Below, in pieces: positions 8,633 to 64,000 of a stretch of DNA of 64,000 nt. Made by a program: the position numbers and the translations under genes. The notes under the pieces were generated by a model that saw only the letters and a program-made list of their open reading frames with translations, made no database searches and had not been told where the DNA came from. This DNA is from an uncultured Bdellovibrionales bacterium. GTDB lineage: Bacteria; Patescibacteriota; Minisyncoccia; Moranbacterales; UBA1568. The DNA lies in the NCBI GenBank assembly GCA_964444815.1, contig CAYUIR010000001.1, positions 4,520 through 68,519 of the forward strand, written 5' to 3'. The first letter of the stretch is position 1. Every line of letters begins with the position of its first letter.

Positions 8633-9055
8633 CTATTTTTCTTCAAAAAAGAGTTGCCAGAAGAGGTAGCCGGCAATGAGAAACAAGAGAATGATGAGAG
8701 GGATACTGAGTGGAGGGAATTTGATGAGGGAGACGACGAGGATGGAGGTACCCCAGAGGAGAGCGAGTACCAAGAGGGGATGACGAGGAGTGATGGTGAG
8801 GGGAAATGAGAGACCCAGGAATCGACCGAGGGCGGTGATGAGAAGGGTGAAGACCACAAGCACGAGGAGGAACAGTGCGAGACTAAAACGGACCGTGACA
8901 AAGGTCGGGAGGAGGGTCTCGACGGTAAAGAGCCCCAGGAAATAGAGGTAGCCGATGACGAGGGCCTCGGTCGCGAGGGCATAGAGTACCTGGAGGAGGC
9001 CAGTCTCTTTAGAGTGACGGAGTCTAGAAACGAATTGCTGGTAGAGAAATTGCAT
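8633..9055 (-). CDS. hypothetical small integral membrane protein (4 predicted TM helices)
   Basis: Hydrophobic 140-148 aa product. Start chosen at MQFLYQ (9055), 11 nt after the upstream stop; the alternative start is 9079. Confidence 0.5.
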   Translation of the reverse strand: MQFLYQQFVSRLRHSKETGLLQVLYALATEALVIGYLYFLGLFTVETLLPTFVTVRFSLALFLLVLVVFTLLITALGRFLGLSFPLTITPRHPLLVLALLWGTSILVVSLIKFPPLSIPLIILLFLIAGYLFWQLFFEEK

Positions 9056-9065
9056 AGACGGATAT

Positions 9066-10214
9066 TTAGGCGCCACCAAAGCGAGCGAGGAGGCGCTGTT
9101 TGATTTGGGAGAGGAGGGTCAGCATGTTCTCTCGGTTCTTGGCTGTTTCAAATGAAGCCGTGATGGCATTCATATCGATAGCGGTGCCACTTCTGATAGA
9201 AAGTTCAAAATCATTACCATAGAGAGTAGGGAGGGCGATCGGGAGTTCACAGAGGAGTGCCGTACCCCAGACATTGGGTGTGAGCGTGCAGGAGAGAGTG
9301 GTTTCACTCGCCGTGGTAGAAACGAGGATTGGATAGGTAGTATGTGTGAGGAGAAAGTCACGGTATGGGCTAGCGGGCAACGGACGCTTGGTACCTTCTC
9401 CGATAATGAAGTAGGTATCATTGTCGATATCTCGGAGAATTGTCCCATCGGGATGCGCGGCACCAAGGAGGATGATGCGACCACGCTCATAGACACCGAG
9501 CTCTTCTTCGCTCACGCTCACGACATCTTCAAAGTGGTACCCGAGCGCGAGAAATATTTCGGCACTTCCCACCGGGCGCACCTCGGTCTCGCTCACCACG
9601 ATAAAGACACCGGTAGCGTTGCCGAGGAGCGAGCCGACGCGGAAACCGAGCCACTGCTCTGAGATGGGATAGAGAGTGAGGAGCGACCGATCGGCCGGTA
9701 CGGCTCGTCCCTCCGGGAGGCGCGAAAGGTAGGCGGCTTGGCTCACAAAGGGATAGAGTACACCATCACGGAGGGCGTAGTAGGTATCGTCGAGTCGGTA
9801 GGCGGTCTCGGTAGGGAAGTCAGTGACGGGTGCACCGGTCGGATACAAAAAACTCTGATACGAGCGCCGAACAGAAAAATCAAGCGTCTCGGGAAAGGCG
9901 GATTTCTTTTCGAGGTTGGCTCGGACGGAGAGGAGGGAGAAATCACCTACTACGGTGGTGTCAGCGATCATGCGACCACCGGCTTCGATCTTGCCATTTT
10001 CGCGAGGCGTAGCGTCAGGTGCTCGTGGATGGAGGATGGTGTTTTTGCTTGATCCAGGCGAGCGGAAATCAAACTGCTGGGTGATCACCGGAAAGAGGAC
10101 CCGGAGCGCCATATATATCGTGACCATGGCAATCAAGAGGTAGAGGAGGCCGCGGAGCGCGAGATACGTATGGCGCCAGGGCTTGGCAATGGGGAGCGGG
10201 TAGAGGAAAGACAT
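9066..10214 (-). CDS. hypothetical membrane-anchored protein (N-terminal TM helix plus ~340 aa extracytoplasmic domain)
   Basis: 382 aa with a single N-terminal hydrophobic helix (LLYLLIAMVTIYMALRVLF). No recognisable catalytic motif. Confidence 0.5.
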   Translation of the reverse strand: MSFLYPLPIAKPWRHTYLALRGLLYLLIAMVTIYMALRVLFPVITQQFDFRSPGSSKNTILHPRAPDATPRENGKIEAGGRMIADTTVVGDFSLLSVRANLEKKSAFPETLDFSVRRSYQSFLYPTGAPVTDFPTETAYRLDDTYYALRDGVLYPFVSQAAYLSRLPEGRAVPADRSLLTLYPISEQWLGFRVGSLLGNATGVFIVVSETEVRPVGSAEIFLALGYHFEDVVSVSEEELGVYERGRIILLGAAHPDGTILRDIDNDTYFIIGEGTKRPLPASPYRDFLLTHTTYPILVSTTASETTLSCTLTPNVWGTALLCELPIALPTLYGNDFELSIRSGTAIDMNAITASFETAKNRENMLTLLSQIKQRLLARFGGA

Positions 10215-10215
10215 A

Positions 10216-11994: not shown

Positions 11995-12102
11995 AGTACC
12001 TCCAGTATACCGTAAAAGCGCTTCTTGTTCCATCTCCATATACTTGGTTTGCCAAGGGAAACTCGTCGGGCTACAATAGAGGAAATTGCTTATATTCCCA
12101 AG

Positions 12103-13287
12103 ATGAATATTCTTGTTGTGGCGCCGACGCCGTTTTTTTCTGATCGGGGGACCCATATCCGTATCCTCGAAGAAGCGCTCGCCCTCGAAAAGCGTGGTCA
12201 TGAGGTGACGATCGCTACGTACCACATCGGCCAAAACTTGCCAGAGCATCTCGGATCACATATCGATGTCCGCCGTATCAGGCGACTTTTGTTTTGGTAC
12301 AAGAAATTGGAAGCGGGCCCAGACTGGCAAAAGATCATTCTCGATCTCCTCCTTATCAAAAAGGTGTTTTTCTTGGCGCGGACCAAGCGCCCCGACATCA
12401 TCCATGCTCATCTCCATGAGGGAGCGCTCATCGCCTGGATCGTGCAAAAGATGCTCTTCTGGCGCGGAATCAAGGTGGTAGCGGATTTCCATGGCAGTCT
12501 GACCAAGGAGATGGTGTCGCACAAATACCTCCGTGCTTCTGGTCTCGAGCGCTTATTTCGCTTTGTGGAAGAGTGGATTGACACCCTGGGAGATGCTGCT
12601 GTCGCGAGTTCGTGGAATAACGCGGAGGAGATCGCTCGGATTCGCGGAACCAAAGTCGAGGTACTCCTCGATGGGACACGTCTCTCGATGTTTGAGGGTC
12701 TACCTGAGCGTTCTCTGATTCGAGAGGAGTATGGTGTCCCCGAGTCAGCCGTCGTCGTGACCTACACGGGGGCCTTTATCCGGAACAAAGGCATCAATTT
12801 CTTTCTCGAAGCCATGCCACAAGTAGCCAAGGAATGTCCTACCGCTCATTTTGTCCTTGCTGGTTTCCCACTTGATCTCATCGAGCATGACATCCCCGAG
12901 GCGCTTCGGACACGTGTGACTATCGTGAGTCCCTCGCCGTACTTTGATCTGCCTCGGATCCTCCGGATGAGTGACATCGGGGTCGATCCCAAAGATGAGG
13001 CGACCCGAGAGGCGAGTGGTAAGACGCTTCAGTATATGGGAGCAGGACTACCGGTCGCGTGCTTTGCGACGGGTAACAATCGTGAATATCTTGGCGAGGG
13101 TGGTACTTTTGCCGAGACCGTGACGGCGAGCGCTTTGGCCGAGGCTATCCTCGTCCTGGCCAATGACGTGTCACTGTGTGCCAAGAAGGGTGCAATCAAC
13201 CGTACCCGAGCCGAGGATTTCAGTTGGGAGAAAAGCGCCGAGAAAGTAGAGGGGATGTATCAGTCACTTTTGAGACAACCATCATGA
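12103..13287 (+). CDS. glycosyltransferase family 4
   Basis: Start moved to MNILVVAPTPFFSDRGTHIR (12103). GT-B fold with a C-terminal Glycos_transf_1-like region. Confidence 0.8.
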   Translation: MNILVVAPTPFFSDRGTHIRILEEALALEKRGHEVTIATYHIGQNLPEHLGSHIDVRRIRRLLFWYKKLEAGPDWQKIILDLLLIKKVFFLARTKRPDIIHAHLHEGALIAWIVQKMLFWRGIKVVADFHGSLTKEMVSHKYLRASGLERLFRFVEEWIDTLGDAAVASSWNNAEEIARIRGTKVEVLLDGTRLSMFEGLPERSLIREEYGVPESAVVVTYTGAFIRNKGINFFLEAMPQVAKECPTAHFVLAGFPLDLIEHDIPEALRTRVTIVSPSPYFDLPRILRMSDIGVDPKDEATREASGKTLQYMGAGLPVACFATGNNREYLGEGGTFAETVTASALAEAILVLANDVSLCAKKGAINRTRAEDFSWEKSAEKVEGMYQSLLRQPS

Positions 13288-14471
13288 ATCTTTGGCGGAT
13301 CAAATTAGGCAAAGCCTGGAATGTCCTCAAGCGGGACGGACTCTGGCGGGGTGGGATGCGGGTGCTTACAGCCTTCGGTCAGTTGTTTCGGCGCGTCCGG
13401 CCAGGCGATATCCTCTTTATCTCGAATGGTGTCGGTGATAGTGCTCGCTATCGAACCGTGCATGTGGCTGAGGAGCTTGAGCAGGCTCACTTTCGGACGG
13501 CAGTGACGGTCCAGGACAATCCATTTCTCTCGTCCTATGCCGACCAGTTTTCAGTCTTTGTGTTTCATCGCGTGCTCTACACTGATCAGATTGCATCCTT
13601 TGTGGCTCGGCTCAAAGCACTCAAAAAGACGATTGTCTTTGAGACAGACGACCTCGTGTATGACCCCGAGTTTCTCCGGCACATGGACTATTACACTCAG
13701 ATGAATCCCTGGGAGAAGAAACTTTATGAGCATGGTTTGGGAGGGGAGATACTCAGTGATCCGTATGTCAAGGTGGCGACGACGACTACTTCGTTTCTGG
13801 CGGACAAGCTCCGTGAGCGAGGGAAGCAGGTTTTTGTGGTACGCAACAAACTTTCGAAGCAAGACCTCCTCTGGGCCGCCGATGCTTTGGTCAAGAAAGC
13901 TAACAGCTATAAGCTATCAGTCACTCATCCTATCCGTATTGGGTATCTCTCTGGTACTCCGAGTCACAACAAGGACTTTGCCACGATTACCCAGGCGCTG
14001 GTATCAATTCTGGAGCGTTATCCAATTGTCCGGCTCGTGCTCGCCGGGCCACTCGATACGGAGAGTGCCCTTCAGAAATTTGCCGACCGGATCGAACGGG
14101 TGCCGTTTGTGCCTCGGAGTGAACTCTTTGGGGTGATTGCGTCCCTTGATATCAATCTCGCGCCACTTGAAATCGGTAACCCTTTCTGTGAGTCCAAGTC
14201 GGAGCTCAAGTGGTTCGAAGCGGGTATTGTTGGCGTGCCCACGGTGGCTACTGCCACCCAGACGTTTCGTGAGGCGATCACCGATGGCGTGGATGGATAT
14301 GTCGCGTCGACCGAGAGTGAATGGCAGGAGAAATTGGCCCGACTCATCACTGATTCTGTGGCGCGACAGGCGATGGGTGCCCGAGCTCGCGAGACCGTGC
14401 TCGCCAAGTACGTGACCAGCGCTGGTGACCCAGCCTACGCCGAATATTTGCGACAGAGAGTCTCAAAATAG
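13284..14471 (+). CDS. glycosyltransferase (GT4-like C-terminal domain)
   Basis: Start at MNLWRIKLG (13284), overlapping the upstream stop as ATGA. C-terminal FEAGIVGVPTVATATQTFREAITDGVDGY is GT1/GT4-like. Confidence 0.75.
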   Translation: MNLWRIKLGKAWNVLKRDGLWRGGMRVLTAFGQLFRRVRPGDILFISNGVGDSARYRTVHVAEELEQAHFRTAVTVQDNPFLSSYADQFSVFVFHRVLYTDQIASFVARLKALKKTIVFETDDLVYDPEFLRHMDYYTQMNPWEKKLYEHGLGGEILSDPYVKVATTTTSFLADKLRERGKQVFVVRNKLSKQDLLWAADALVKKANSYKLSVTHPIRIGYLSGTPSHNKDFATITQALVSILERYPIVRLVLAGPLDTESALQKFADRIERVPFVPRSELFGVIASLDINLAPLEIGNPFCESKSELKWFEAGIVGVPTVATATQTFREAITDGVDGYVASTESEWQEKLARLITDSVARQAMGARARETVLAKYVTSAGDPAYAEYLRQRVSK

Positions 14472-15606: not shown

Positions 15607-16563
15607 ATGAAAGTACTCATCACTGGAGGGGCAGGATTTATAGGCTCAGCAACCGCGCGGGCACTGATGGAGCGAGGTGATACGCCCATACTCATCGACA
15701 ACTTCAACGACTACTACGACCCTCGGATTAAAGAGGACCGCATCAAGAAGTTTCTCAAAGCCTACAAAGGTGGGTTCAAGTTGTACCGGGGTGACATCCG
15801 CGATGCGAAATTTCTCGAAAAGGTGTTCAAGAAAGAGAAACCAGAAAAAGTAGTCCATCTCGCGGCTATGGCTGGAGTCCGGAATAGTCTCAAGAATCCA
15901 GCCCTCTATGTTGATGTGAATGTCATGGGGACGACACTCCTCCTCGATTTCTCGGTCAAGTACGGAATCAAGAATTTCCTCTACGCTTCGTCTTCATCAG
16001 TCTATGGCAACAACAAGAAACTACCGTTTTCGGAAACTGATCCGGTAGATACCCCTATTTCGCCGTACGCCGCCACCAAGAAGGCGACCGAGCTCCTGGC
16101 TCATGTCTACAGTCATATCCACAGTCTCCCGACCACAGGACTCCGGTTTTTCACCGTTTACGGCCCATGGGGACGACCGGATATGGCTCTCTTTGATTTT
16201 ACTCGGGCGATCTTTGCCGATGAAACTATCAAGGTCTACAATCGTGGCAACATGACCCGGAACTTTACCTATATCGATGACATTGTCTCGGGTATCCTCA
16301 CCTGTCTCGATAAAAACCTCCCGTGTGCCCTCATGAATATCGGGGGAGACAAAGAAGAGAAGCTCACCCGGTTTATCGAGGTGATTGAAAAGAACGTGGG
16401 GAAGACGGCCAAGAAAAAACTGATGCCCATGCAACCAGGCGATGTCCCATCGACCGTGGCAGATATCAAGCGCTTGCGCAATCTGGGCTGGAAGCCGACC
16501 ACTCGTATCGATGAGGGGATCAAGAACTTTGTCGATTGGTACCGGGAGTACTTCGGGGTGTAG
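15607..16563 (+). CDS. NAD-dependent epimerase/dehydratase, UDP-glucuronate 4-epimerase-like (CapI/WbnF-type)
   Basis: 318 aa. Contains GGAGFIGS, a YxxxK active site (YAATKKATE) and the C-terminal FVDWYREYF typical of UDP-GlcA 4-epimerases. Confidence 0.8.
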   Translation: MKVLITGGAGFIGSATARALMERGDTPILIDNFNDYYDPRIKEDRIKKFLKAYKGGFKLYRGDIRDAKFLEKVFKKEKPEKVVHLAAMAGVRNSLKNPALYVDVNVMGTTLLLDFSVKYGIKNFLYASSSSVYGNNKKLPFSETDPVDTPISPYAATKKATELLAHVYSHIHSLPTTGLRFFTVYGPWGRPDMALFDFTRAIFADETIKVYNRGNMTRNFTYIDDIVSGILTCLDKNLPCALMNIGGDKEEKLTRFIEVIEKNVGKTAKKKLMPMQPGDVPSTVADIKRLRNLGWKPTTRIDEGIKNFVDWYREYFGV

Positions 16564-17610: not shown

Positions 17611-19035
17611 ATGAAACGTTCAGAAATATACTTCAGTACGATACAGGTACCCGTCGACTTTCTTATGATTGTCCTGGCGGGGATTTCAGCGTACTACCTG
17701 CGTGGACTCCCGATGTTCGAAGGGTATGTCTCGCGGGTGTTCAATATTTCTTTTGAAGACTATCTCTGGTTCTCTCTCTCCGTGGCGCCACTCTTTCTTG
17801 TCGTGATTGCTTTTGAAGGTCTCTATACCATGCGGGCGACGCGTACCTTTGGAAAAGAAGCCTATGGCATCGCACGGGCCATCACCCTCGGACTCATTAT
17901 CTTGGTGCTTGCTGTCTTCTTGAACCGTGAGTGGTTCTCGTCACGGTTCGTCATCGTGGTCGGCTGGGCTATTGCTATCGTCTATGTCGTCCTTGCTCGC
18001 TATATTATTCAGCGCATCCAGAAATGGTTTCTCGTCAATCGGAATGTGGGTATCCATCGTATCCTCCTCATTGGGTCCAATCAAAAGGTGTATGCCTTGC
18101 GGAAGCTCCTCACCAAGAATAAGCAACTCGGGTATCGAGTCGTCGATCAGATCGATACGGCGAGTGTCGTCCAGGTCAAAGAAATCCGAGCCATGAAGGG
18201 TGTGGACGAGATTATCGTGGGTGACCCGACGCTTACTGATGATGAGCAGGAGAAACTTTTTGACTACTGTCAGATCAACAACATTACCTACAAGTATTTT
18301 CCGACCACACTCCAGACCCCGCGTTTCTCGATGAAGATCTTTAATGGGGAACCGCTCATCGAATTTCAGCATACCCCGCTCGATGGTTGGGGTCGGGTAC
18401 TCAAGCGGACCTATGATATCGTCGCGGGATTTTTCCTCACGGTGCTCTTTTCACCCATCATGCTCGTGGTGGCCATCCTCATCAAACTCGAGGATCCAGA
18501 TGGACCGATTATCTACAAGAATGAGCGCATCGGCGAAAATGGAGTGAAATTCTTTGTCTACAAGTTCCGCTATATGCAGTGGAAGTACTGCGTGACCAAG
18601 GACAATCCGCATATGGATGAGGCCATCGCCTATGAAAAGAAGTTGATTGAAGAGAAAAACGTAAGGAAGGGTGGTATCCTCTACAAAATCAAAGATGATC
18701 CGCGCAAGATGCGGGTCGGGGCCTGGATTGAACGATTTTCTTTTGATGAACTGCCACAGTTTTTTAACGTCCTCGAGGGGACGATGTCACTCGTCGGACC
18801 ACGACCCCATCAGGAGCGAGAGGTCGACCGTTATGCCGAGTATCACCGGCGCCTCCTCACTATCCGTCCTGGCGTGACCGGGATGGCTCAGGTGTCGGGA
18901 CGCTCTGACCTCGCTTTTGAGGATGAGTACCGGCTCGATGTATTCTACATTGAGAACTGGTCGCTTTGGCTCGATATCATCATCTGTCTCAAGACCGCTG
19001 GCGCCCTTCTCAGACGGCGCAAGAACGTGAAATAA
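17611..19035 (+). CDS. polyprenyl-phosphate hexose-1-phosphate transferase (WbaP/bacterial sugar transferase family), initiating enzyme
   Basis: 474 aa with N-terminal TM helices and a CoA-binding-like domain. The C-terminal Bac_transf domain reads KRTYDIVAGFFLTVLFSPIMLVVAILIKLEDPDGPIIYKNERIGENG...LPQFFNVLEGTMSLVGPRP. Confidence 0.85.
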   Translation: MKRSEIYFSTIQVPVDFLMIVLAGISAYYLRGLPMFEGYVSRVFNISFEDYLWFSLSVAPLFLVVIAFEGLYTMRATRTFGKEAYGIARAITLGLIILVLAVFLNREWFSSRFVIVVGWAIAIVYVVLARYIIQRIQKWFLVNRNVGIHRILLIGSNQKVYALRKLLTKNKQLGYRVVDQIDTASVVQVKEIRAMKGVDEIIVGDPTLTDDEQEKLFDYCQINNITYKYFPTTLQTPRFSMKIFNGEPLIEFQHTPLDGWGRVLKRTYDIVAGFFLTVLFSPIMLVVAILIKLEDPDGPIIYKNERIGENGVKFFVYKFRYMQWKYCVTKDNPHMDEAIAYEKKLIEEKNVRKGGILYKIKDDPRKMRVGAWIERFSFDELPQFFNVLEGTMSLVGPRPHQEREVDRYAEYHRRLLTIRPGVTGMAQVSGRSDLAFEDEYRLDVFYIENWSLWLDIIICLKTAGALLRRRKNVK

Positions 19036-19045
19036 CAATCGTCTC

Positions 19046-19070: not shown

Positions 19071-19127
19071 CTGGTGAAATTCTTGCTGAGTGCTATACTC
19101 TAGGTGTAAGTCAGTAAGCCAAATTCT

Positions 19128-43250: not shown

Positions 43251-43259
43251 AGATTGCAA

Positions 43260-44423: not shown

Positions 44424-44427
44424 ATCG

Positions 44428-51901: not shown

Positions 51902-52837
51902 ATGAATAAGAACCTCCTAACGCTCGGGAAAGTGGCAGTGACGCTTGGGCTGGTCTACTGGCTTATTGTGCGGGTGGACTGGGTGGGGGTGCGCCATGAG
52001 CTCTCGGAAGTGTCCTACATGCTTCTTTTCCTCTACGTGGTGTTCCAGCTCACGGGGAACGTCATCTCGGCCCGTAAGTGGCAAATTATCGCTTCCTACA
52101 AGGAGCTCCATTTTAGTCTCAAGGAGGGATTCTTTACCTATCTCACCGGGGCTTTTATCAACAACTTTCTGCCATCAACCATCGGGGGCGATGCCTATCG
52201 GGGACTATGGCTCGCCAAGCGCTCCGGGGCGCGAGCGGCCGCGCTGTCGACGGTCGTGTTTGACCGATTTATTGGTCTCTGGACCACAGCCCTGTTGGCG
52301 CTCGTCTTTAGTTTTGTCCTCTGGTCGCATATCGCGACCAGTCTCCCGCTCCTCGTCACTCTCGTTGCACTCCTCGGGTTCTTGGTCGTAGATCTCGTGG
52401 TGACTTACCTCTACTGTCAGAGCTGGTTCCAGGGGTATGTGGCGCGGATTCCTTTCTTCAAACTGCGACGCTTTCTTGAGGAGATTATTTTTTATACCCA
52501 AAAGCACCTCTGGCTCCGGACCAGTCTCTGGTCGAGTCTCTTTGTCTTTGTGGGTCTCGGACTGTCGAACTACACGCTTTTTCATGCGCTCGGAAGCGAG
52601 ATCGCGTTTCTGCCGTTTTTTTCGGCTATCCTCCTTGTGGCGATCGTGTCCAATATCCCAATTTCTATCAACAACATCGGCATCAAGGAATGGGCTTATG
52701 TCACTTTTTTTGGTCTCATCGGAGTCTCTATCGAAACAGCCGTGACGGCAGCTCTCCTCTCCCGCTTTATCCAGATGTTTCTCTCGTTCATCGCTTTACC
52801 GCAGTACCTGAGTACCAGGAGGAACGAAGAAGAGTAA
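51902..52837 (+). CDS. flippase-like membrane protein (LPG-synthase-TM / UPF0104 family)
   Basis: 311 aa with about 8 TM helices. The conserved central region GAFINNFLPSTIGGDAYRGLWL is present. Confidence 0.55.
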   Translation: MNKNLLTLGKVAVTLGLVYWLIVRVDWVGVRHELSEVSYMLLFLYVVFQLTGNVISARKWQIIASYKELHFSLKEGFFTYLTGAFINNFLPSTIGGDAYRGLWLAKRSGARAAALSTVVFDRFIGLWTTALLALVFSFVLWSHIATSLPLLVTLVALLGFLVVDLVVTYLYCQSWFQGYVARIPFFKLRRFLEEIIFYTQKHLWLRTSLWSSLFVFVGLGLSNYTLFHALGSEIAFLPFFSAILLVAIVSNIPISINNIGIKEWAYVTFFGLIGVSIETAVTAALLSRFIQMFLSFIALPQYLSTRRNEEE

Positions 52838-52882: not shown

Positions 52883-55162
52883 TTAGTACGTTTCTTTGGG
52901 GTCAAAGGAGAAGACTTTGACGTAGTGCGAGGGTCGCTCGTTGATATTGATTTCGTAGACCGGGTTCTCACGGTCATAGTAGCGATCGAAGCGGATGATG
53001 CCCGGCTTGTTATTGGCGATGTCGCCTCCCATCATCTTGCCAGTGCGACTCTGGCGTCCGGCAGAAACGACGATGTAGTCGAGTCCACGCTCACGGAGGG
53101 TGAGGTAACTCTGACTGCTGGAGCAGCGTCCGACAAAGAATTTGCAGACCCCATCCTTGTCTGTCCAGACGAGCATGTCTTCGGCACCGGGGAGGGTGTT
53201 TAAGTAGGCAGCTGCCTCATAGCTCCCGGCGCCCATATCTTTGACATCAGTGTGGTAGCGCGCCGGGAGAAACGAAGAGGCGTAGGAGAGAGGGAAGGGC
53301 GTCGTGATGAGGGTGAGTGTACCGAGTACCACGAGGATGAGCGCGGTGCCCACAGGAGTCGGGGCGTTCCTCAGTTTGAAATAGTGGTGGCCATGGGCGA
53401 GGAGGTACTCGATCGTGATACCGGCGATGATCGCGGCGAGGGGGAAGAGAATAATCTGGTAGCGGACAATCGCGGCCACGTTATTTACTGTGGTGCCGAG
53501 GTAGTAGAGGAGGATAAAGATAATGAGGTAAAACGAGGTGCGGAGAGCATCGGATTCGCTCCAGTGTTTGCGGAAGAAGAGGAGTGGCGTGAGGAAGAGT
53601 GCCACAAAGACAATCGGCGCAACACCAAAGATAAATGGATAGAAGTTGGTGAGAAAGATGCCGATGAAGTCGCTCTGACCGGCGATGGTTTTGGGGGAAG
53701 AGAGGAGCTCAGAAAACGAGTAGAGGGGCATCCCTGACCAGGTGTTGCCGACGGTGAAGAGGAGAGCGAGGAGAAAGACGCCACCAATGAACCAGGCGAG
53801 GTACTGCTTGCCTCGGGCGAGAACCGAGAGGATGCCTGTGGTGAGGCGAGAGCGGTTCCACCATTGGTCAAGGAGAATGACGAGGAGGATGATACCAAAG
53901 AGCGGGGCGACTTTCTCAAAGGCCTGACTCAAGAGCGTGGAGGTAACGACCTTGTAGGGCTTGATCCATACCGCTGGAAAGAGGAGATAAAACGTGGTGA
54001 GCGCTGCAAAAGCGAGGAGGGCGAGATGCTTGAGAGAACGTTTGAGGTAGAGGGCAAAGGGGACGAGAGCGTACTTCGCGTGATAGAGGTACTCGAGAAA
54101 AATGAGACCAAGGAAGAAAACAAAGAGGATGTTTGAGACATACTTGGTGAGGAGAGCGAGACCGAGGAAGATGCCAGCAAAGATGAGATAGCGGTACGAA
54201 CCACGTTTTTGAAACACCAAGTAGGAGAGGAGAGAGAGCGGGGTAAAGAGCCAGAGGAGAGCGTCCGGATTGATGATTTTTGACATGCCGATCAAGATCG
54301 GGGAGGTAGCGATGAGGACATAGGAGAGGAGAGCGCTCCGCCTCCCGAGGAGTCGCTCGAGAAAAAAGTAAAAGAGTGGGAGAAGGAGCGTGATCACGAT
54401 GAGGAGCGGGAGACGATAAGCGAGATAAAAACTCTCGACGTCGTTCTTGAGACTGATGACTTCACCACCGACGTGGGCGGTTTTGTAGTCTTTGGTACCC
54501 TTAAACCAGAGTGCCGGTCCGGTAGCGAGGGCGACGGTGATACCGGGCTTGTCGCTAATATTGGTACCCTTCCAATCACGCTCCCCGATATTTTTCCAGT
54601 ATCGGGCGATGCGACCATCAAACCAGAGTGGTTCATCGACGGCAGCGAACTCGGTCAGACGATACATGCCGGTCGAAAAGAAAAGACCGGTAGCAAAGAG
54701 AACAACGAGAAGAGTAGGAAGCCCTTGGGCGCGCCACCAAGCTCGAGGTGTGAGCGCGTCACGATCTAGTTCCCGCTCGGCGCGTTCCCGACTGATAAAA
54801 ATAGCTGAAATGAGTATACCAGCCAAGATGACATAGAGACCGAGACCGATAAGGAAGATATAGTGAAAATTTTTGGATTCGGAGAGACCATAGGCCAAAA
54901 TAGTGGCACTAGGGAGCCACATGAGGAGGAGAGTAGTGCCAGTTTTTTCCGAAAAGAGTACCTCGCTGAAATACGCCACCGCGCCCAGGGAAAGAATGCC
55001 GAAAATAAGAAAGCCGATGTAAAATGGGGTGTTGGTTGTGCCAAAATCAAGGAGGGTCAGAAATTTGGTCTGAGGAGCAATAAAGAAGAGAGTGACGAGT
55101 GCTCCTAAAACTGTCAGTGCGGAGTAGAAGCGCTCCGCTTGACCCTCAAAAAATGTGCGCAT
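52883..55162 (-). CDS. GT-C glycosyltransferase (GT39/GT83, PMT/ArnT-like)
   Basis: 759 aa with about 13 TM helices. A first extracytoplasmic loop (AAVDEPLWFDGRIARYW) carries the DE motif, and the large C-terminal domain is soluble. Confidence 0.65.
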   Translation of the reverse strand: MRTFFEGQAERFYSALTVLGALVTLFFIAPQTKFLTLLDFGTTNTPFYIGFLIFGILSLGAVAYFSEVLFSEKTGTTLLLMWLPSATILAYGLSESKNFHYIFLIGLGLYVILAGILISAIFISRERAERELDRDALTPRAWWRAQGLPTLLVVLFATGLFFSTGMYRLTEFAAVDEPLWFDGRIARYWKNIGERDWKGTNISDKPGITVALATGPALWFKGTKDYKTAHVGGEVISLKNDVESFYLAYRLPLLIVITLLLPLFYFFLERLLGRRSALLSYVLIATSPILIGMSKIINPDALLWLFTPLSLLSYLVFQKRGSYRYLIFAGIFLGLALLTKYVSNILFVFFLGLIFLEYLYHAKYALVPFALYLKRSLKHLALLAFAALTTFYLLFPAVWIKPYKVVTSTLLSQAFEKVAPLFGIILLVILLDQWWNRSRLTTGILSVLARGKQYLAWFIGGVFLLALLFTVGNTWSGMPLYSFSELLSSPKTIAGQSDFIGIFLTNFYPFIFGVAPIVFVALFLTPLLFFRKHWSESDALRTSFYLIIFILLYYLGTTVNNVAAIVRYQIILFPLAAIIAGITIEYLLAHGHHYFKLRNAPTPVGTALILVVLGTLTLITTPFPLSYASSFLPARYHTDVKDMGAGSYEAAAYLNTLPGAEDMLVWTDKDGVCKFFVGRCSSSQSYLTLRERGLDYIVVSAGRQSRTGKMMGGDIANNKPGIIRFDRYYDRENPVYEININERPSHYVKVFSFDPKETY

Positions 55163-55245: not shown

Positions 55246-57042
55246 GTGTCTTCCCATCTCTCTCACAAGCGTGTCATTTTGCTTCTCCTCGTCATTATCG
55301 GCTTGGGATTTTTTCTCCGTGCGTATCACTTTTCCCCCTGGCTCCATTTTGAGCTCGATCAGGCGAGGGATGCACGCATCGTCGATGACGGGCTCCGAGG
55401 TGACTTCTTGGATCTGCCGCTTCTCGGTCCCAAGGCAGGAGGGACATCGCTACGGCTTCCTCCAGCGTTTTATTATCTGGAGTATGTGAGCGCCAGAGTC
55501 TTTGGCGGTACGCCGGCGGGGATAGCGACCCTTGGTATGCTCCTCTCGGTCGCGAGTATCGCGGTCTTTTTTCTCCTGTTACGCCGGTACTTTCCGGTAG
55601 GCATGAGTCTCGGACTGACGCTCCTCTTTGCCGTCTCGGAGTTTTTTGTCATGTATGGCCGTTTCGCCTGGAATCCCAACCTCATACCATTTTTTGTGCT
55701 CCTCGGTACGTACGCGCTCCTCCGAGCGGTTGATCATGAGACGTCACACCGGGGCAGATGGTTCGTCCTCTCGAGTGCGAGTATCGCGCTTGCCATGCAG
55801 TTTCACTTTTTGGCCTTTGTCTCATTACCAGTTATTGTTGGCCTCTTTCTTCTCATACGACGACCACACTTTTCACTCCGAGCTTGGGTAGGAGCGATCC
55901 TCGTGGCTCTTTTCCTCTTCTTTCCGATGTTTTTGAATGAATGGGAGACCAGTTTCGCCAATAGTCGAGCCTTTGTCTCAGCTGTGACCGAAAAGTCGAC
56001 CAAGAAAGATTATTCCTTGGCGGAGAAGGGCATCAAGGTATTTTCGGAGCATGCGCTCTACGGTCTCGTCGTGACGACGGGCTTTGAACGGGCGACCTTT
56101 CCCAAGATTGTGCTCGGGACTGATGAAGGGGAAGTGATCGGATGGGCTTGTGATGCTCGCTGTGACGCTGGCAAGTGGTATGGGGTTCTCTCGGTCGTTG
56201 TCCTTGGGCTCATGGTCCTGTCACTTGTGGTCCTCTGGTATCGTGAGACAATACAGAAGCACCGAGATTTCCTCCTCTTCGGGGCTCTCTGGTTTGGGGT
56301 GACGCTCCTTGTGTTTACGCCACTCGCCTATGATATGGTCCCGCGATTTTTCCTTCTCTCGGGCCCACTCTTCTTGGTGTTTCTAGGACTCCTCTTTGTC
56401 CTCTTGGGGCAGTGGTGTCATCGCAAACGACTCGTAATGAGCCTCTTTCTTGTGGTGATGGCATTCCTTGCCGTGAGTAATCTGGTGTCGCTCGCGGAGC
56501 GCTTTCAGGAGCTGTCGCTCGCGAGTACGATGGCAGTGGACAGTCCACCGGATCGCATCTTGAAGGAGCGGATCCGTGTGACTCTCGAACAACAGTATCA
56601 AATCATCGGTTTCCTCCAAAGTCGTTCGGAAGAAACGGGGTATCCGGTCTATATGTGGAGTGAGCCTCAGTACCGGCGGGCGCTCAAATACCTCTTGGAG
56701 CGGCAAGGGGTGCAAAATGCCGTACTCGGGATAGATGGTATCTACAAAGAAGGGGTGTACTATATGATTCTCCGCACCCAGTCTGATATCGAGGATGCAC
56801 TCAAGAAGTATCGAGCGAGTTATGATATTGGTACGACGACGTCCTTTGGGACGCTGGTCGCCATTGAGCTTTTCCCCAAACCTGAAGCCATACAAAAAGT
56901 GCGTCAGGATTTTTCGATTGTGAAGCCCAATGACTCGCAGGGCCTGCCGCGCTATACCTGGCGGGAATTCTTTGGGAGACAAGGGGCCTCATCAGCTGAA
57001 CCAGATGCTTCTGATGAAGAAAGTATCGATGGAGATAAATAA
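55246..57042 (+). CDS. GT-C glycosyltransferase (ArnT/PMT-like)
   Basis: 598 aa. Loop 1 reads HFELDQARDARIVDD, with about 11 TM helices and a C-terminal soluble domain. Confidence 0.6.
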   Translation: MSSHLSHKRVILLLLVIIGLGFFLRAYHFSPWLHFELDQARDARIVDDGLRGDFLDLPLLGPKAGGTSLRLPPAFYYLEYVSARVFGGTPAGIATLGMLLSVASIAVFFLLLRRYFPVGMSLGLTLLFAVSEFFVMYGRFAWNPNLIPFFVLLGTYALLRAVDHETSHRGRWFVLSSASIALAMQFHFLAFVSLPVIVGLFLLIRRPHFSLRAWVGAILVALFLFFPMFLNEWETSFANSRAFVSAVTEKSTKKDYSLAEKGIKVFSEHALYGLVVTTGFERATFPKIVLGTDEGEVIGWACDARCDAGKWYGVLSVVVLGLMVLSLVVLWYRETIQKHRDFLLFGALWFGVTLLVFTPLAYDMVPRFFLLSGPLFLVFLGLLFVLLGQWCHRKRLVMSLFLVVMAFLAVSNLVSLAERFQELSLASTMAVDSPPDRILKERIRVTLEQQYQIIGFLQSRSEETGYPVYMWSEPQYRRALKYLLERQGVQNAVLGIDGIYKEGVYYMILRTQSDIEDALKKYRASYDIGTTTSFGTLVAIELFPKPEAIQKVRQDFSIVKPNDSQGLPRYTWREFFGRQGASSAEPDASDEESIDGDK

Positions 57043-57057: not shown

Positions 57058-58584
57058 ATGCGTATCACTTGGAAGCAAACATGGCAGTGGCTCCTCGTAA
57101 TCGTGGTCCTCGGGCTGGGCCTCCGGCTCTACGGTATCGGTACCAATTCGTTTGTCGCGGATGAGTTCCTCGATATCAACTCAAGCTACGGCTATTTCCA
57201 GACGGGTACATGGAAGGCCTGGGATTTCAACTTTGGCGTGCCGGCCGTGATGAATGAGAATGATGCTCGCGATGAGCGCGCTTTTGTCTACAAGTGGCAG
57301 GTCGCCACACTCTTTCAGTTTGTGTCACCGACAGAGGGCCATGCTCGCCTGGTGAGTGTCGCCTGGGGTGTCATCTCGATTCTCGCTATGTTTTGGGCGG
57401 GCTACTTTTACACCCGTAAGAAATCTATTGGTCTCATCGCTGCTATACTCTTTGCAGTCAGTATCTCAGCGATTATCTTTGATCGGCGCCTGCGCATGTA
57501 TGCTATGTTTTTTCCGGTGTACCTCGCTTTGGCTACGGTTCTCTTTGCGGTCTTTGAGCGTGAGTATCAGGGTAAGGTAGCGTGGCTACGGCGGGTGTGG
57601 GAGCGATATGGCCTCAATATCTCGTATGCACTACCACTCCTCGCTCTCGTGACCCTCGGCGCGCTCGTACACGGACTATCCCTCAGCGTGATACCGGTCT
57701 TTGGGGTGTATGCGCTCGTGATGATGGTCCGCACGTGGCGAAAGGGAGGGCGTCTCATGACCAAGTATGGCATAGTTGTACTCTTGGGAATCCTTGGTGC
57801 CATTGGTGCCATCTTGTTTGCACCACAGTTGGTGCGTCTGGCTCTCGGCAGTGTCGTCTTCTTTGACGACCACTACTCATACTTTGGCTATGTGCTCCGT
57901 GATTTCGCTCATCCGCTTTTGGGTGCTCTCATTATCCTCTACGGTATCCGGGTGGCCTGGAAGCGTCTCGGCTTGACGCGTGAGGCACTGTGGCTCGCGC
58001 TCTCTCTTTTGGTGCCTCTTGCTATGGCCGTATGGCTCTGGCGACGCAATGCTGGTCCGCAGTACATATTTTTTGTGCAGTCATTTGCGCTCCTCCTTGC
58101 TTCTATCGGGGTGTATGGCTTGGCCAAGCTCGTGAAAGAGCGCTTCTCTGAGTGGGGACAACGGGGTCTCTTGGGAGTATTCCTCCTTTCGATGCTCCTT
58201 CTACCGAACTGGGGCTATTTTCTCGAGGAAAACAATACCTACCATGAGACGTCATCGGGGGGCAATCCGAATTATCGAAAGGTGTTTGACTATGTCAAGA
58301 AAAATAAATCAAATGAGGATGTGATTATCACTCGGAATTTCCGGAACTACTATCTCTCTGGCGCCAAGATGCCGGTCTACGACTTTGGCGGGGAACTGTC
58401 TGAGAGCAAATTTTCACTGGTGGAACTCGAGACTATCGTAGGCAAGCACCCACATGGCTGGGTAGTCCTTTCGACCAATGACTATGACTATATCTCGCGG
58501 GACGCTGAGCTGTATATCAAAAAGCGCATGGAGCTTGTGAGTAATGCCCAGGTCCGTGGTGCCATCGAGGTCTACCGCTGGTAG
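57058..58584 (+). CDS. GT-C glycosyltransferase (ArnT/PMT-like)
   Basis: 508 aa. Loop 1 reads FVADEFLD (DE motif), with about 11 TM helices and a C-terminal soluble domain. Confidence 0.6.
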   Translation: MRITWKQTWQWLLVIVVLGLGLRLYGIGTNSFVADEFLDINSSYGYFQTGTWKAWDFNFGVPAVMNENDARDERAFVYKWQVATLFQFVSPTEGHARLVSVAWGVISILAMFWAGYFYTRKKSIGLIAAILFAVSISAIIFDRRLRMYAMFFPVYLALATVLFAVFEREYQGKVAWLRRVWERYGLNISYALPLLALVTLGALVHGLSLSVIPVFGVYALVMMVRTWRKGGRLMTKYGIVVLLGILGAIGAILFAPQLVRLALGSVVFFDDHYSYFGYVLRDFAHPLLGALIILYGIRVAWKRLGLTREALWLALSLLVPLAMAVWLWRRNAGPQYIFFVQSFALLLASIGVYGLAKLVKERFSEWGQRGLLGVFLLSMLLLPNWGYFLEENNTYHETSSGGNPNYRKVFDYVKKNKSNEDVIITRNFRNYYLSGAKMPVYDFGGELSESKFSLVELETIVGKHPHGWVVLSTNDYDYISRDAELYIKKRMELVSNAQVRGAIEVYRW

Positions 58585-59073: not shown

Positions 59074-60549
59074 CTAAGATCCTCTTCGTAGGAGCTTCTG
59101 GAGCGGGGCGATATCAGTGTCACTGAGCTCCTTCACCAGACGGAGGTAGACGAAGTAGAGGGCAAAAAGGAAGCCACCTGAGAGGAAAAAGGAGATCGGA
59201 CCGTGAGGCAGGTATGGAGCTATAAGGGCAATCATAAGCGTGCCAAGGAGCGAGAGGAGGACGGTTCGTAAGGAGAGCTTCACATAAAAGTGTCGAGCGG
59301 TCGCCACCAGGATAGCAACCATGAGAAAAAAAGAAGTAATGGTCGTCGAGAGCGCCGCGCCGACGAGCCCAAAGACCGGGATCAAGAAGAGATTGAAGAG
59401 AATCATGAGGAGAAATCCGCCAGAGGCGAGATACATGGGAATTTTGACTAATCCAGCGCCATTTAGGGCAAAGGAGAGGACGTAAAAGACGGTGAGGAAT
59501 CCGACTCCAACCGCAAAAACACTCATGGGAGCGAGGGCCTCGGCATAACGGGCGCCATAGAAGAAATGAAGGACCTGAGATCCAAAGGCTATGAGAAGCG
59601 TTACCATCGGAAAGAGGAGAAAGGTCATGAGACGGAGAGAGCGGTTGACGAGGCTCTCGGTGCCAGCTGTGTCCGCTTCAGCCGTGGTTTTGGAGATAGC
59701 GGGGAGGAGGATGATAGTGAGCGCGTAAAAGAGGAAATAAGGGATGCGTCCGACGGTGATGGCGGCGTTGTAGATGCCGGTTAGGTAGTCACTACCGAGC
59801 ATACTCTTCACAAAGTAGAGGTCGAGGGTGAGGATAAGTTCATAGAAAAGGAGAAATGCAGTCAGTGGTCCCGCGTAGGCGAGGATGGTTTTGCCTGAGA
59901 AGAGCTCTACTTCTTTGCGTCTAGTGTCTCTTAGAGTTGGGAAATAGCGATGGGTGACCAAGAGGTCAAAGAGGATAGCTATCCCAAAGACAAAGAGCGG
60001 GGCGATGATATAGCCTGTGATGGCTCCTTCAACCCCAAAGATTGAGGCGAGAAGAACGATAAAGACCACCCGGCTGATTGCTCGCAGGGTTTTGAGGGCC
60101 GCTTGAACTCGGAAGAAGTGGAGCCCAGTAAAGTAGTAGAAATAAAACGAGGCGGCAGCAAAGGCGGGGATAATTAGTGAGGAGAGCTGAAAGAGCGGCG
60201 TAAGCGATGGATCGCGGAGGACCCAAGCAATAAGCGGTGACGCGAAGAAGAAAACGGCGGTCACTGAGAGCATGAGGATGGCCTGGAGGCGGAGCGCTTG
60301 GTACTTGATGCCGAGGATTTTCCCCGGGGCGGACTCAAAGATCTCGCTTAGGTATTTGGACATGGCCGTGGGGATGCCGTTTCCGATCAGGATGATAATC
60401 ATGGTGGTGAGCGTCACCACGAGACCATAGCGACCATACTCCTCAGGGCCGAGGATGCGGCCGAGTGACGACTGGATGATGTAGCCACCGATGTTGTAGA
60501 TGACCTCTGAGAGGGTCAACCACACCAATGCTTGAGAGAATTTTTTCAT
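59074..60549 (-). CDS. Wzx-like polysaccharide flippase (MOP superfamily)
   Basis: 491 aa with about 14 TM helices. Confidence 0.7.
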   Translation of the reverse strand: MKKFSQALVWLTLSEVIYNIGGYIIQSSLGRILGPEEYGRYGLVVTLTTMIIILIGNGIPTAMSKYLSEIFESAPGKILGIKYQALRLQAILMLSVTAVFFFASPLIAWVLRDPSLTPLFQLSSLIIPAFAAASFYFYYFTGLHFFRVQAALKTLRAISRVVFIVLLASIFGVEGAITGYIIAPLFVFGIAILFDLLVTHRYFPTLRDTRRKEVELFSGKTILAYAGPLTAFLLFYELILTLDLYFVKSMLGSDYLTGIYNAAITVGRIPYFLFYALTIILLPAISKTTAEADTAGTESLVNRSLRLMTFLLFPMVTLLIAFGSQVLHFFYGARYAEALAPMSVFAVGVGFLTVFYVLSFALNGAGLVKIPMYLASGGFLLMILFNLFLIPVFGLVGAALSTTITSFFLMVAILVATARHFYVKLSLRTVLLSLLGTLMIALIAPYLPHGPISFFLSGGFLFALYFVYLRLVKELSDTDIAPLQKLLRRGS

Positions 60550-62911: not shown

Positions 62912-62912
62912 G

Positions 62913-62997
62913 GAAATTCTTCATGCGGGACGCTCCCTCCAGAGGCGGGCAGGCATCAGATATGTGACCGGCCTTCACCCGGAGAAAGAAAAAATTC
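62913..62997 (+). repeat. conserved intergenic motif, copy C
   Basis: ACGCTCCCTCCAGAGGCGGGCAGGCATCA is identical to copy A, followed by ATGTGACCG, CACCCG and AGAAAGAAAAAA. Confidence 0.6.
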
Positions 62998-63022
62998 TTT
63001 TGCAGGGATGCTGAGCGGCAGA

Positions 63023-64000
63023 TCAAAGCGATGAATATATTTCACTATATTGCTTGGCAGTATTTTTGAGGTCAAAGTGGTCTTTGACGTAGCGACGGGC
63101 ATTGTCGCCGAGACGGTGCTGTTCTTCGATATTATCCTTTAGATAAGCCAAAGATTCGATGAGTTTATCACCAGAATCTTTCGGGATTGTAACACAAATA
63201 TCAGGGTTTGTAAATTCAGCAAACTGGGGGAGATTGGAGAGGATAACTGGTTTACCGCAGGCATAAGCCTCGATGATGATAAGTGGGACATCAAACTTTC
63301 CTTTGAGATTTTCAACCGGAAAGATGACGACATCCGCGGTGTTGTAGAGCGAGGGCATATCGGTCGTAGCGCTCTGTTCGTCGAAGAGAATATGCTTTTC
63401 TAGGCCCGCGCTTTTTACTCTGGCCCTGATGTCTTCGCGCTTGGCGCGGTCGGCTTCATTTTTGATCCGACAGGCAAAGAGAAACTTCATGTTGGACTCG
63501 GGGTGTTCGGTGAAATAACGGAGAAACGTCTCAGCGAGCATGTCGGTGGCACCGAGGCGAGTGTATTCGCCGGGGTAGATAACCAAGAAGTCATCGGGAG
63601 TGAGGCCGTAGGTCGCGAGAACAGCCGGATTCTTATCTCTGGGTTGGTAGAGGTCGAGGTCGATGCCAGGGTAGATGCGGCTGACGTTCCGAAAGCCGAG
63701 TGCCTCGAGCTTGTTCTTGGTGCGGTCGGTATAGACGATAATCCGATCAGCAAAGAGGAGGGAACGGAGTTCTGTGGGCGTGTAGAGGTCTTCACGGAGC
63801 GTCGCTACCGTCTGGAGGGTACGTCCGGTTGGTCGTGCTAGCCATTTGATGAGGTTGGTGTTTTGTTTGGTCGGGGTAAAGAGATAGTGAGTGACATCAT
63901 AGTCCCGTCTGGTCCGGCGGAGATAGGCGAGCAGGCGGAGCTTGGTCGCTAGGTCAAAGTGGCCATGAGAAAAGATACGCTCTTCATGAGCACTCGCCGG
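63023..64000 (-). CDS. glycosyltransferase family 4, 5'-partial: N-terminus lies beyond the window end
   Basis: My hand translation of the minus strand is open from 64000 down to the stop at 63023. GT-B C-terminal domain ADVVIFPVEN...IEAYACGKPVILSN. The track's 63586 start is an internal TTG. Confidence 0.7.
   Translation of the reverse strand, partial: PASAHEERIFSHGHFDLATKLRLLAYLRRTRRDYDVTHYLFTPTKQNTNLIKWLARPTGRTLQTVATLREDLYTPTELRSLLFADRIIVYTDRTKNKLEALGFRNVSRIYPGIDLDLYQPRDKNPAVLATYGLTPDDFLVIYPGEYTRLGATDMLAETFLRYFTEHPESNMKFLFACRIKNEADRAKREDIRARVKSAGLEKHILFDEQSATTDMPSLYNTADVVIFPVENLKGKFDVPLIIIEAYACGKPVILSNLPQFAEFTNPDICVTIPKDSGDKLIESLAYLKDNIEEQHRLGDNARRYVKDHFDLKNTAKQYSEIYSSL

Follow-up and report, generated by a model that had tools for sequence, protein, structure and literature searches.

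The closest described counterparts of the gene region analysed here are multi-component transmembrane glycosylation systems, in which a glycan backbone is built inside the cell and decorated outside it from polyprenyl-monophosphate sugars (PMC8035078). Gtr of Shigella and Salmonella, CsbB/GtcA/YfhO, GtlA/GtcA/GtlB, CsdAB/CD/EF with CflA of L. lactis and GtsABC of B. anthracis are of this kind, and variants are known that have a separate small membrane partner, that employ Wzx-type flippases or that contain membrane glycosyltransferases of the GT-C type which are detectable by structure alone (PMC8035078). In PpgS/Rv3632/Rv3779 and in GacI/GacJ/GacL a small DUF2304 protein stimulates the synthase of the lipid-linked sugar, and transfer of the sugar takes place outside the membrane by a GT-C (PMC3485146; bioRxiv 10.1101/180810); GacJ and Rv3632 both belong to the DUF2304 family (bioRxiv 10.1101/180810). 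Our subject is a stretch of 64,000 nucleotides, called the window in the following (contig CAYUIR010000001.1 of GenBank assembly GCA_964444815.1, positions 4,520 to 68,519 of the forward strand), in which glycan genes span from ≈8.6 to ≈60.5 kb. We consider it probable that this region is the main envelope glycan factory of a Candidatus Moranbacteria bacterium and that it combines a lipid-linked chain made in the cytoplasm with several transmembrane glycosylation systems of this multi-component kind.

A first-pass annotation had read the locus as governed by polyprenyl-phosphate sugars and GT-C enzymes. Judged by gene families, there is good support for this logic, although the assignments of two GT-C enzymes and of one synthase are weak and the predicted sugars are partly unsupported. 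Open reading frames (ORFs) of at least 100 amino acids (aa) were scanned; Pfam thresholds given below are gathering scores and NCBIfam thresholds are equivalog cut-offs. Genes are named by their start coordinate in the window, and L003 to L015 denote related loci or contigs. The candidate synthases of polyprenyl-phosphate sugars, all of glycosyltransferase family 2 (GT2), lie among the following genes:

28301..28972, plus strand: haloacid dehalogenase (HAD)-family hydrolase/phosphatase-like enzyme (Pfam)
28976..31786, plus strand: three-domain fusion of 936 aa, with a GlmU-like nucleotidylyltransferase (≈23-266), a YvcK/GlmR-type CofD-like domain (≈275-630) and a GT2 domain resembling dolichyl-phosphate mannose synthase (DPMS) and AglJ (≈690-930)
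31797..32534, plus strand: DPMS/AglJ-like GT2, probable polyprenyl-phosphate hexose synthase; AglJ is the best NCBIfam match and 5mlz the best solved relative (residues 3-216)
32546..32953, plus strand: GtrA-family small flippase-like membrane protein (GtrA_DPMS_TM, 80.7 bits)
46533..46904, minus strand: small membrane protein of the DUF2304 family (that of GacJ and Rv3632), which probably activates or anchors the neighbouring GT2 (PF10066, 50.5 bits; cut-off 25.5)
46915..47586, minus strand: PpgS-like soluble GT2, probable polyprenyl-phosphate N-acetylhexosamine (HexNAc) or hexose synthase (PpgS model, 161 bits, end-to-end; equivalog cut-off 370)
47590..48339, minus strand: DPMS-like GT2, less certain (best solved relative DPMS 5mlz, E 1.5e-15, then GtrB)
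48451..49398, plus strand: ArnC/PgfS/GtrB-like GT2, probable polyprenyl-phosphate sugar synthase (ArnC, 188.9 bits; cut-off 529; residues 9-314 on 7-313 of 316)
51902..52837, plus strand: LPG_synthase_TM/flippase-like membrane protein (120.9 bits; TIGR00374 78 bits, cut-off 43.2)

All five GT2 enzymes that had been placed with DPM1, GtrB and ArnC are real, and they group with synthases of this type, although 47590 is ambiguous. The dolichyl-phosphate mannose (Dol-P-Man) synthase of P. furiosus, 5mlz, is the best solved relative of the four that were tested (31797, 46915, 47590 and the GT2 domain of the fusion), followed by ArnC and GtrB; DPMS and ArnC rank first among the solved relatives of 46915, and 48451 matches ArnC and also PgfS over its full length. 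Mutual alignments of the five cover ≈125-240 residues, and 170-240 in all pairs except that of the fusion with 48451. Attachment to the membrane is provided for in several ways: 48451 has two C-terminal membrane segments of its own (238-256 and 272-290), 46915 adjoins the DUF2304 gene and 31797 the GtrA gene. For 47590 neither C-terminal helices nor a small membrane partner are present, and its best NCBIfam match is the N-terminal part of PgaC. The NCBIfam scores of all GT2 enzymes lie far under the equivalog cut-offs and, judged by its score, 46915 is a relative of PpgS and not an equivalog.

The fusion protein, whose three-domain make-up the first-pass annotation had not noted, is preceded by the HAD enzyme 28301 and followed by the stand-alone GT2 31797, a paralogue of its own GT2 domain, for which AglJ is the closest NCBIfam family. 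An identity of the CofD-like domain as an F420-type phospholactate transferase was rejected: the nearest solved proteins are YvcK/UPF0052 (2hzb, 2o2z, 2ppv), and in its N-terminal domain the fusion resembles GlmU and not CofC. YvcK/GlmR proteins are described as binders of UDP-GlcNAc, and an accessory uridyltransferase function is reported for the one of Listeria. Five of the six related loci L003 to L008 retain the fusion; in L008 it seems to be divided between two ORFs. No description of this domain architecture was found in the literature searches made. The exact 936-aa protein is also present on the metagenome contigs Logan SRR10036082 and GCA_013565575.1.

Like the multi-component systems, the locus carries a GT2, a GtrA-type or other small flippase and a GT-C side by side (31797-32546-32950; 48451...51902...52883/55246/57058). 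By their order, 31797 (GT2), 32546 (GtrA) and the polytopic 32950 would form a gtr-like triad behind the HAD enzyme and the fusion. A second cassette of 47590 and 46915 (GT2), 46533 (DUF2304) and 44428 (GT-C) may mirror PpgS/Rv3632/Rv3779 of M. tuberculosis and GacI/J/K/L of S. pyogenes, with which it shares the presence of a synthase (46915), a three-helix DUF2304 protein and a large GT-C in one operon. Unlike PpgS, 46915 stays far below the cut-off of the model, and its sugar need not be GalNAc; unlike both trios, the cassette has a second GT2 (47590) that precedes 46915/46533, and 44428 lacks detectable sequence similarity to Pfam, NCBIfam or PDB entries. The right-hand block presumably is of the same nature and comprises the ArnC-like 48451, a UDP-glucose 6-dehydrogenase (Ugd), a family 4 glycosyltransferase (GT4), the flippase-like 51902, the GT-Cs 52883, 55246 and 57058 and a Wzx flippase. 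It resembles the Arn pathway in that 48451 adjoins Ugd, followed by a flippase-like protein and GT-Cs of the ArnT/PMT_2 type, but enzymes of the ArnA (formyltransferase/decarboxylase), ArnB (aminotransferase) or ArnD (deformylase) type were not found in the locus, and the ArnC score (189) compares with a cut-off of 529. The locus differs from Gtr-type systems in that at least four or five sets are packed in one conserved 50-kb region, in that four of its seven GT-Cs come from families without a Pfam model and in that a nucleotidylyltransferase and a YvcK-like domain are joined to one of the synthases. Genomes of the Candidate Phyla Radiation (CPR) are of the 1-Mb class (≈1 Mb).

The first-pass annotation had counted six or seven GT-C enzymes with DE-type first-loop motifs. 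There are seven candidates, all polytopic with ≈10-14 hydrophobic segments each in a hydropathy scan and all with acidic loop residues; three match Pfam and two have models of the GT-C fold, whereas 10216 and 32950 are weakly supported. We take 21391, 52883, 55246, 44428 and 57058 as secure and the other two as probable:

21391..22836, minus strand: GT-C of the PMT/PMT_2 type (PMT 38.7 bits, cut-off 22.7; PMT_2 27.1 bits, cut-off 26.1); (Q/P)DE after the first membrane helix kept in relatives
52883..55162, minus strand: GT-C of the PMT/PMT_2 type (PMT 45.7 bits, PMT_2 41.6 bits); conserved (V/A)DE motif
55246..57042, plus strand: GT-C of the PMT_2 (ArnT-like) type (PMT_2 46.5 bits); conserved ELDQARD motif
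44428..46533, minus strand: glycosyltransferase with the GT-C fold from a very small family that diverges fast; D162-P-Y-Y-W loop invariant
57058..58584, plus strand: GT-C-fold glycosyltransferase of a Pfam-less family present Moranbacteria-wide; invariant D35-E36-x-x-D39 after the first membrane helix
10216..11994, minus strand: probable GT-C of 592 aa; invariant R93-D94-Q95 loop motif; family conserved in Moranbacteria
32950..34596, plus strand: polytopic protein with C-terminal DUF6798, probable GT-C; comes third in a cassette resembling gtrB-gtrA-gtr(type)

Acidic residues of the first loop are conserved or invariant in all seven families, namely D162 (44428), D35/E36/D39 (57058), D94 (10216), D61 (32950) and DE or ELDxxxD (21391, 52883, 55246). 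In 44428 (LPDSD162PYYW) and in 57058 (AD35E36FLD39) the invariant acidic residues open the helix that comes after a membrane helix. The catalytic carboxylates of GT-C enzymes sit at this loop position, and in all seven families the acidic loops are predicted to face outward. An identity of 55246 as a Wzy protein was rejected, as Wzy_C reaches just 16 bits (cut-off 31.7) while PMT_2 passes on the same protein. Two adjacent paralogues of 52883, ≈60% and ≈30% identical to the query, are encoded on L011 (294-3976) and L014 (3-2380), and their arrangement suggests a tandem duplication in this family.

Sequence methods cannot place the families of 44428, 57058, 10216 and 32950: none of the four gave a significant match in Pfam, NCBIfam or in single-sequence and profile HMM searches of PDB sequences, and a sub-threshold PMT_2 hit (E 0.0074) was seen in a single family member. 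In being too divergent for sequence models and recognised by fold, GT-Cs of the locus are again like those of multi-component systems. Confident AlphaFold (AF2) models were obtained for 44428 and 57058; both are helical bundles, and their best matches among solved structures are all GT-C glycosyltransferases, so that the possibility of these proteins being transporters, polymerases or ligases did not materialise. For 44428, Foldseek gave a probability of 1.00 for 20 GT-C structures, with STT3 and PglB as best matches; an identity as WaaL or Wzy was rejected (Foldseek probability 0.10 and TM-score 0.11-0.16 to WaaL). The family of 44428 has 23 members, and the best relative outside its own population is 41% identical. 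Its positional counterpart in L010 (18864-21065) shares 30% identity with it, compared to 87% for the adjacent PpgS-like protein and 81% for the DUF2304 protein. This resembles Gtr systems, in which the gtr(type) genes likewise diverge faster than gtrA and gtrB, and it may reflect fast divergence or replacement of 44428 in the manner of type-specific gtr genes. In contrast to this rare and variable family, those of 57058 and 10216 are conserved lineage-wide.

The length of 10216 is 592 aa, since P0144 is 100% identical at 592 aa and the 677-aa ORF over-extends the start. None of its more than 490 homologues contains a Pfam domain; the NCBIfam model of the putative glycosyltransferase LA_3751/LA_3752 was found, below threshold, in 16 of 26 family members (best E 3.4e-16), and the comparison with the PMT-positive family of 21391 gave an hhalign probability of 55% (E 1e-4). 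The family of 32950 is rare (34 clusters among 1.84 billion representatives); 17 of 23 members contain DUF6798, D61 is invariant in the first loop, and the alignment with the 44428 family extends over 348 collinear columns (hhalign probability 61%, E 8e-5).

The three matches to PMT/PMT_2 models and the resemblance of 44428 to STT3 and PglB would also fit a role of most GT-Cs in the glycosylation of surface proteins (S-layer, pilins, lipoproteins), either as PMT-like O-glycosyltransferases with polyprenyl-phosphate sugars as donors or as oligosaccharyltransferases by which the chain exported by Wzx would be moved onto proteins. The latter activity would explain the absence of Wzy; the window yielded neither Wzy or Wzz nor an LCP ligase. 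We nevertheless regard protein glycosylation as unlikely. In contrast to protein O-mannosyltransferases (GT39, PMT), the GT-C proteins of the window showed no match to MIR or PMT_4TMC at E <= 0.01 and were matched by the PMT/PMT_2 core alone; the PMT_2 model also takes in ArnT-like modifiers of lipids and glycans. A WWDYG-type motif was absent from the sequences and invariant residues examined. Moreover, in all precedents that have been characterised, cassettes of the gtr-like and PpgS/DUF2304-like kinds act on glycan acceptors (PMC3485146, PMC8035078, bioRxiv 10.1101/180810).

The genes for the cytoplasmic part of the pathway and for export of its product are the following:

17611..19035, plus strand: WbaP-like polyprenyl-phosphate hexose-1-phosphate transferase, the initiator (Bac_transf 192 bits and CoA_binding_3; 5 membrane segments)
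26045..27319, plus strand: Wzx-type flippase, polytopic (Polysacc_synt 32 bits, cut-off 28.2)
59074..60549, minus strand: Wzx/MurJ-superfamily flippase (Polysacc_synt 79.8 bits, Polysacc_synt_3 62 bits)
12025..13287, plus strand: cytoplasmic GT4 glycosyltransferase (Glyco_trans_1_4, Glyco_transf_4 and Glycos_transf_1 over cut-off)
13176..14471, plus strand: GT4-type glycosyltransferase (Pfam)
19494..20681, plus strand: GT4-type glycosyltransferase (Pfam)
34574..35839, minus strand: GT4 glycosyltransferase (Pfam)
37297..38307, minus strand: GT4 glycosyltransferase (Pfam)
39104..40219, minus strand: GT4 glycosyltransferase (Pfam)
43260..44507, minus strand: GT4 glycosyltransferase (Pfam)
50735..51895, plus strand: GT4 glycosyltransferase (Pfam)
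38304..39140, minus strand: EpsE/TuaG-like GT2 of the cytoplasmic chain-building type, not DPM1-like; aligns with the DPMS-like GT2s over the N-terminal ≈95 aa (nucleotide-binding part) alone
15607..16563, plus strand: generic NAD-dependent epimerase/dehydratase of the short-chain dehydrogenase/reductase (SDR) type (GalE, RmlB and TviC models all below cut-offs)
22898..24637, plus strand: fusion of two SDR epimerase/reductase domains (two Epimerase stretches; second half WbcJ-type 4-keto reductase, 49 bits)
24576..26030, plus strand: CapD/PglF/WbpM-type UDP-HexNAc 4,6-dehydratase (Polysacc_synt_2, 308 bits)
27397..28326, plus strand: S-adenosylmethionine (SAM)-dependent methyltransferase (Pfam)
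35764..36561, minus strand: SAM methyltransferase (Pfam)
36566..37300, minus strand: SAM methyltransferase (Pfam)
40209..41303, minus strand: SAM methyltransferase (Pfam)
41358..43259, minus strand: AsnB-type glutamine amidotransferase, candidate uronamide-forming enzyme (Asn_synthase 346 bits and GATase_7)
49421..50731, plus strand: Ugd family (all three UDPG_MGDP_dh domains)

Pfam confirmed what had been predicted for the two Wzx flippases, GtrA, the LPG-synthase-TM protein and the WbaP-like initiator as well as for Ugd, the CapD-like dehydratase, the double SDR, AsnB and the four SAM methyltransferases. Other predictions had to be corrected. Instead of about 13 cytoplasmic GT4/GT1 enzymes we count nine GT4 genes, one of them (63023, see below) truncated, and one EpsE-like GT2; 15607 had been called a UDP-GlcA 4-epimerase and is a generic SDR. 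A 6-deoxy-amino sugar is not supported, as neither an aminotransferase nor an N-acetyltransferase was seen in the locus; the CapD-like and reductase/epimerase set therefore points to a 6-deoxy-HexNAc.

From the gene families and their order we infer the following course of synthesis. The WbaP-like phosphoglycosyltransferase would begin a chain on polyprenyl phosphate, to be lengthened by the GT4 and GT2 enzymes with sugars tailored by the products of the Ugd, SDR, CapD-like, AsnB and methyltransferase genes, and a Wzx-type flippase would export it. It is the presence of the initiator, GT4/GT2 enzymes, methyltransferases, AsnB and Wzx that argues for a lipid-pyrophosphate-linked chain built inside and then flipped. 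In parallel, GT2 enzymes of the DPM1/ArnC/GtrB type, one with a DUF2304 helper and one fused to sugar-activating domains, would load single sugars onto polyprenyl monophosphate, and a small flippase (GtrA, LPG_synthase_TM-like or Wzx) would move the lipid-linked sugar outward. At the outer face of the membrane a GT-C would then hand the sugar on, either to the glycan that was exported or to a different surface acceptor.

With its WbaP-type initiator, many GT4/GT2 enzymes, Wzx, tailoring genes and a centre of lower GC content the locus resembles Wzx/Wzy O-antigen and capsule loci, from which it differs in that no Wzy, Wzz/PCP, Wza or WaaL was detected in the window. A layout free of Wzy and Wzz had been proposed, and it held in all Pfam scans of the window: Wzy_C, O-antigen polymerase, EpsG and Wzz all stayed below threshold, with the proviso that a divergent Wzy can escape Pfam. 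As far as these scans reach, 10216 and 32950 might in principle be such proteins. The contrast that had been drawn with a classical Wzy O-antigen layout has little meaning for a CPR organism, which is expected to have no outer membrane.

Seven GT-Cs and five donor synthases in one conserved region lacking a detectable Wzy could also indicate that several GT-Cs are processive and build a chain outside the membrane from polyprenyl-phosphate sugars, thereby replacing Wzy as in mycobacterial arabinogalactan and lipoarabinomannan (LAM) assembly (Emb, Aft, Mpt). AftA, AftB and AftD are indeed among the strong structural matches of the modelled candidates, and the combination of many GT-C paralogues with polyprenyl-phosphate sugar synthases is common to the locus and the mycobacterial systems (Emb, Aft, Mpt, PimE). 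This was the analogy preferred in the first-pass annotation, next to protein O-mannosylation. We consider polymerisation outside the membrane very improbable. Nine GT4 enzymes, the initiator and two Wzx-type flippases speak for assembly of a substantial chain within the cytoplasm beforehand, and such a large cytoplasmic GT4 set is itself a difference from the mycobacterial systems. Genes of the decaprenyl-phosphoribose pathway and Emb-type C-terminal carbohydrate-binding domains are missing from the locus, and no UbiA-type phosphoribosyltransferase or other pentofuranose-donor gene turned up in the Pfam scans. The cassette layouts fit systems for decoration with single sugars, and the fold alone cannot show processivity. 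Decoration of Gram-positive cell-wall polymers, together with Gtr-type modification, is a better precedent than arabinogalactan/LAM assembly or protein O-mannosylation (PMC8035078).

A further idea goes beyond these comparisons: Moranbacteria might make a large part of their surface glycan outside the membrane by a lineage-specific set of GT-Cs (with four families that Pfam lacks), which would assume the part of Wzy in polymerisation and branching, fed by the fusion as a hitherto undescribed three-domain 'pipeline' enzyme that leads directly from sugar phosphate to polyprenyl-phosphate sugar, with the fast-diverging 44428-type proteins acting as a serotype-like switch for recognition by host cells or phages in these episymbionts. 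We regard this as quite doubtful.

The preferred reading of an inside-built chain with outside decoration is supported by the conservation of the gene sets. Two cassettes (31797-32546-32950; 47590-46915-46533-44428) and one block (48451...51902-52883-55246-57058-59074) recur across L003-L007, L010, L013 and L015. Gene order from 20650 to 43259 is retained in L005 and L007, with orthologues that are 31-76% identical, and that from 43260 to 62911 in L010; in the distant metagenome-assembled genome (MAG) CAYTED01 (L015) both blocks are contiguous apart from a lipase-like insertion. In L007, homologues of 13176 and 15607, which belong to the left block of the window, sit inside the central block, that of 13176 next to the 20650/21391 pair, and the left and central blocks are therefore likely to be functionally linked.

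Several points weigh against the preferred reading. Seven GT-Cs stand against five putative synthases and three or four potential flippases, which gives no one-to-one pairing, 47590 could be an ordinary cytoplasmic GT2, and the assignment of 10216 and 32950 to the GT-C enzymes relies on weak profile similarity. With GT2 scores so far short of the equivalog cut-offs, no donor sugar can be assigned by name. An LCP-family or other ligase that would join the product to peptidoglycan was not found in the window. Finally, the region is split by a housekeeping gene outside the pathway, and adjacency alone is weak evidence for a shared pathway in a compact genome:

17174..17566, plus strand: RNase P RNA gene of the bacterial type, complete (106.1 bits for RF00010; gathering score 100), between the SDR 15607 and the initiator 17611

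This RNA gene would agree with a chance juxtaposition of independent envelope-glycan modules (for a lipid, a teichoic-like polymer and protein or peptidoglycan modification), as would the GC content, which is 0.44-0.48 in the central ≈18-50 kb and 0.51-0.55 in both flanks, the rearranged order on the left side in L007, the lipase-like gene inserted in L015 and the unequal distribution of the GT-C families, two lineage-wide (57058, 10216) and one rare and variable (44428). Exchangeable surface-glycan islands are often lower in GC. An order from ≈20.6 to 62.9 kb that is kept across genomes whose orthologues are just 30-75% identical makes mere chance extremely improbable in our view, and the move of left-block genes into the central block of L007 argues for a functional link as well. 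Of the ≈50 kb mega-locus that had been proposed, the glycan gene content from ≈8.6 to ≈60.5 kb stands, with the qualification that it is interrupted by the RNase P RNA gene and ends at ≈60.5 kb.

The fusion, 57058 and 10216 have their relatives in MAGs of Candidatus Moranbacteria/Moraniibacteriota and of Patescibacteria, with hundreds of 57058 and 10216 homologues under Moranbacteria names. Four third party annotation (TPA) MAGs with close homologues and the same gene order (L003, L005, L006, L007) are titled 'uncultured Bdellovibrionales bacterium'. These titles are probably taxonomic mislabels, because the gene families otherwise occur in Moranbacteria/Patescibacteria records, and the source of the window is likely a Moranbacteria-like CPR bacterium with a single membrane. 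Moranbacteria and other CPR bacteria are expected to lack an outer membrane and hence lipid A. Abundant and for the most part uncultivated, CPR/Patescibacteria are in many cases assumed to live attached to host cells. Multiple 'dolichol-phosphate mannosyltransferase' genes have been remarked on in passing in other CPR bacteria, Peribacteria and Saccharibacteria (PMC4736985; PMC6031116); a literature search on GT-C enzymes in CPR, on DUF6798 and on glycosyltransferases of Moranbacteria yielded nothing specific.

No new mechanism is revealed by the locus. What is new is how densely the cassettes are packed in one conserved region, along with four GT-C families missing from Pfam (structure models support two of them), the fusion enzyme and a fast-evolving 44428 beside a conserved synthase. 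The conservation of the locus suggests that Moranbacteria invest heavily in extracytoplasmic glycosylation by the logic of Gram-positive cell-wall polymer decoration. The four GT-C families missed by domain databases, their invariant loop residues and the fusion enzyme are targets for heterologous biochemistry, and the families of the locus can serve as markers for surface-glycan diversity, and possibly for host or phage specificity, across CPR genomes.

Some further genes complete the region. Three encode membrane proteins without an assigned family beside the GT-C genes 21391 and 10216, and these proteins may be accessory subunits or acceptor-binding partners:

8633..9079, minus strand: membrane protein of 148 aa, ≈4 hydrophobic segments by hydropathy, function unassigned (no Pfam/NCBIfam match), downstream of the 10216 gene
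9066..10214, minus strand: protein of 382 aa with one N-terminal membrane helix, function unassigned (no Pfam/NCBIfam match), directly downstream of the 10216 gene
20650..21384, minus strand: membrane-anchored protein of 244 aa, function unassigned, partner of the GT-C 21391; the pair is kept in L005 and L007
19128..19475, plus strand: four-helix membrane protein of 115 aa, Phage_holin_4_2 family (E 1.5e-30), between the initiator and a GT4 gene
63023..63586, minus strand: GT4 fragment of 187 aa, C-terminal half of the domain alone

A 250-aa ORF at 19044-19796 (minus strand) was judged spurious, being of low complexity, without matches and overlapping the holin-like gene. The insertion in L015 lies between the GT4 and Ugd genes and consists of a 1016-aa lipase/PGAP1/LCAT-like protein (2154-5204, minus strand) and two small ORFs. 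The left flank of the window (1-8.5 kb) is of housekeeping character, with a class II tRNA synthetase, a gene of the amino-acid-kinase family, IspH, riboflavin genes, one GT4 and an ABC-F ATPase. Right of ≈60.5 kb follow a P-loop kinase-like gene, RtcB and the GT4 fragment 63023, the upstream ORF of which is matchless; this fragment may represent a truncated or frameshifted gene near the end of the window.

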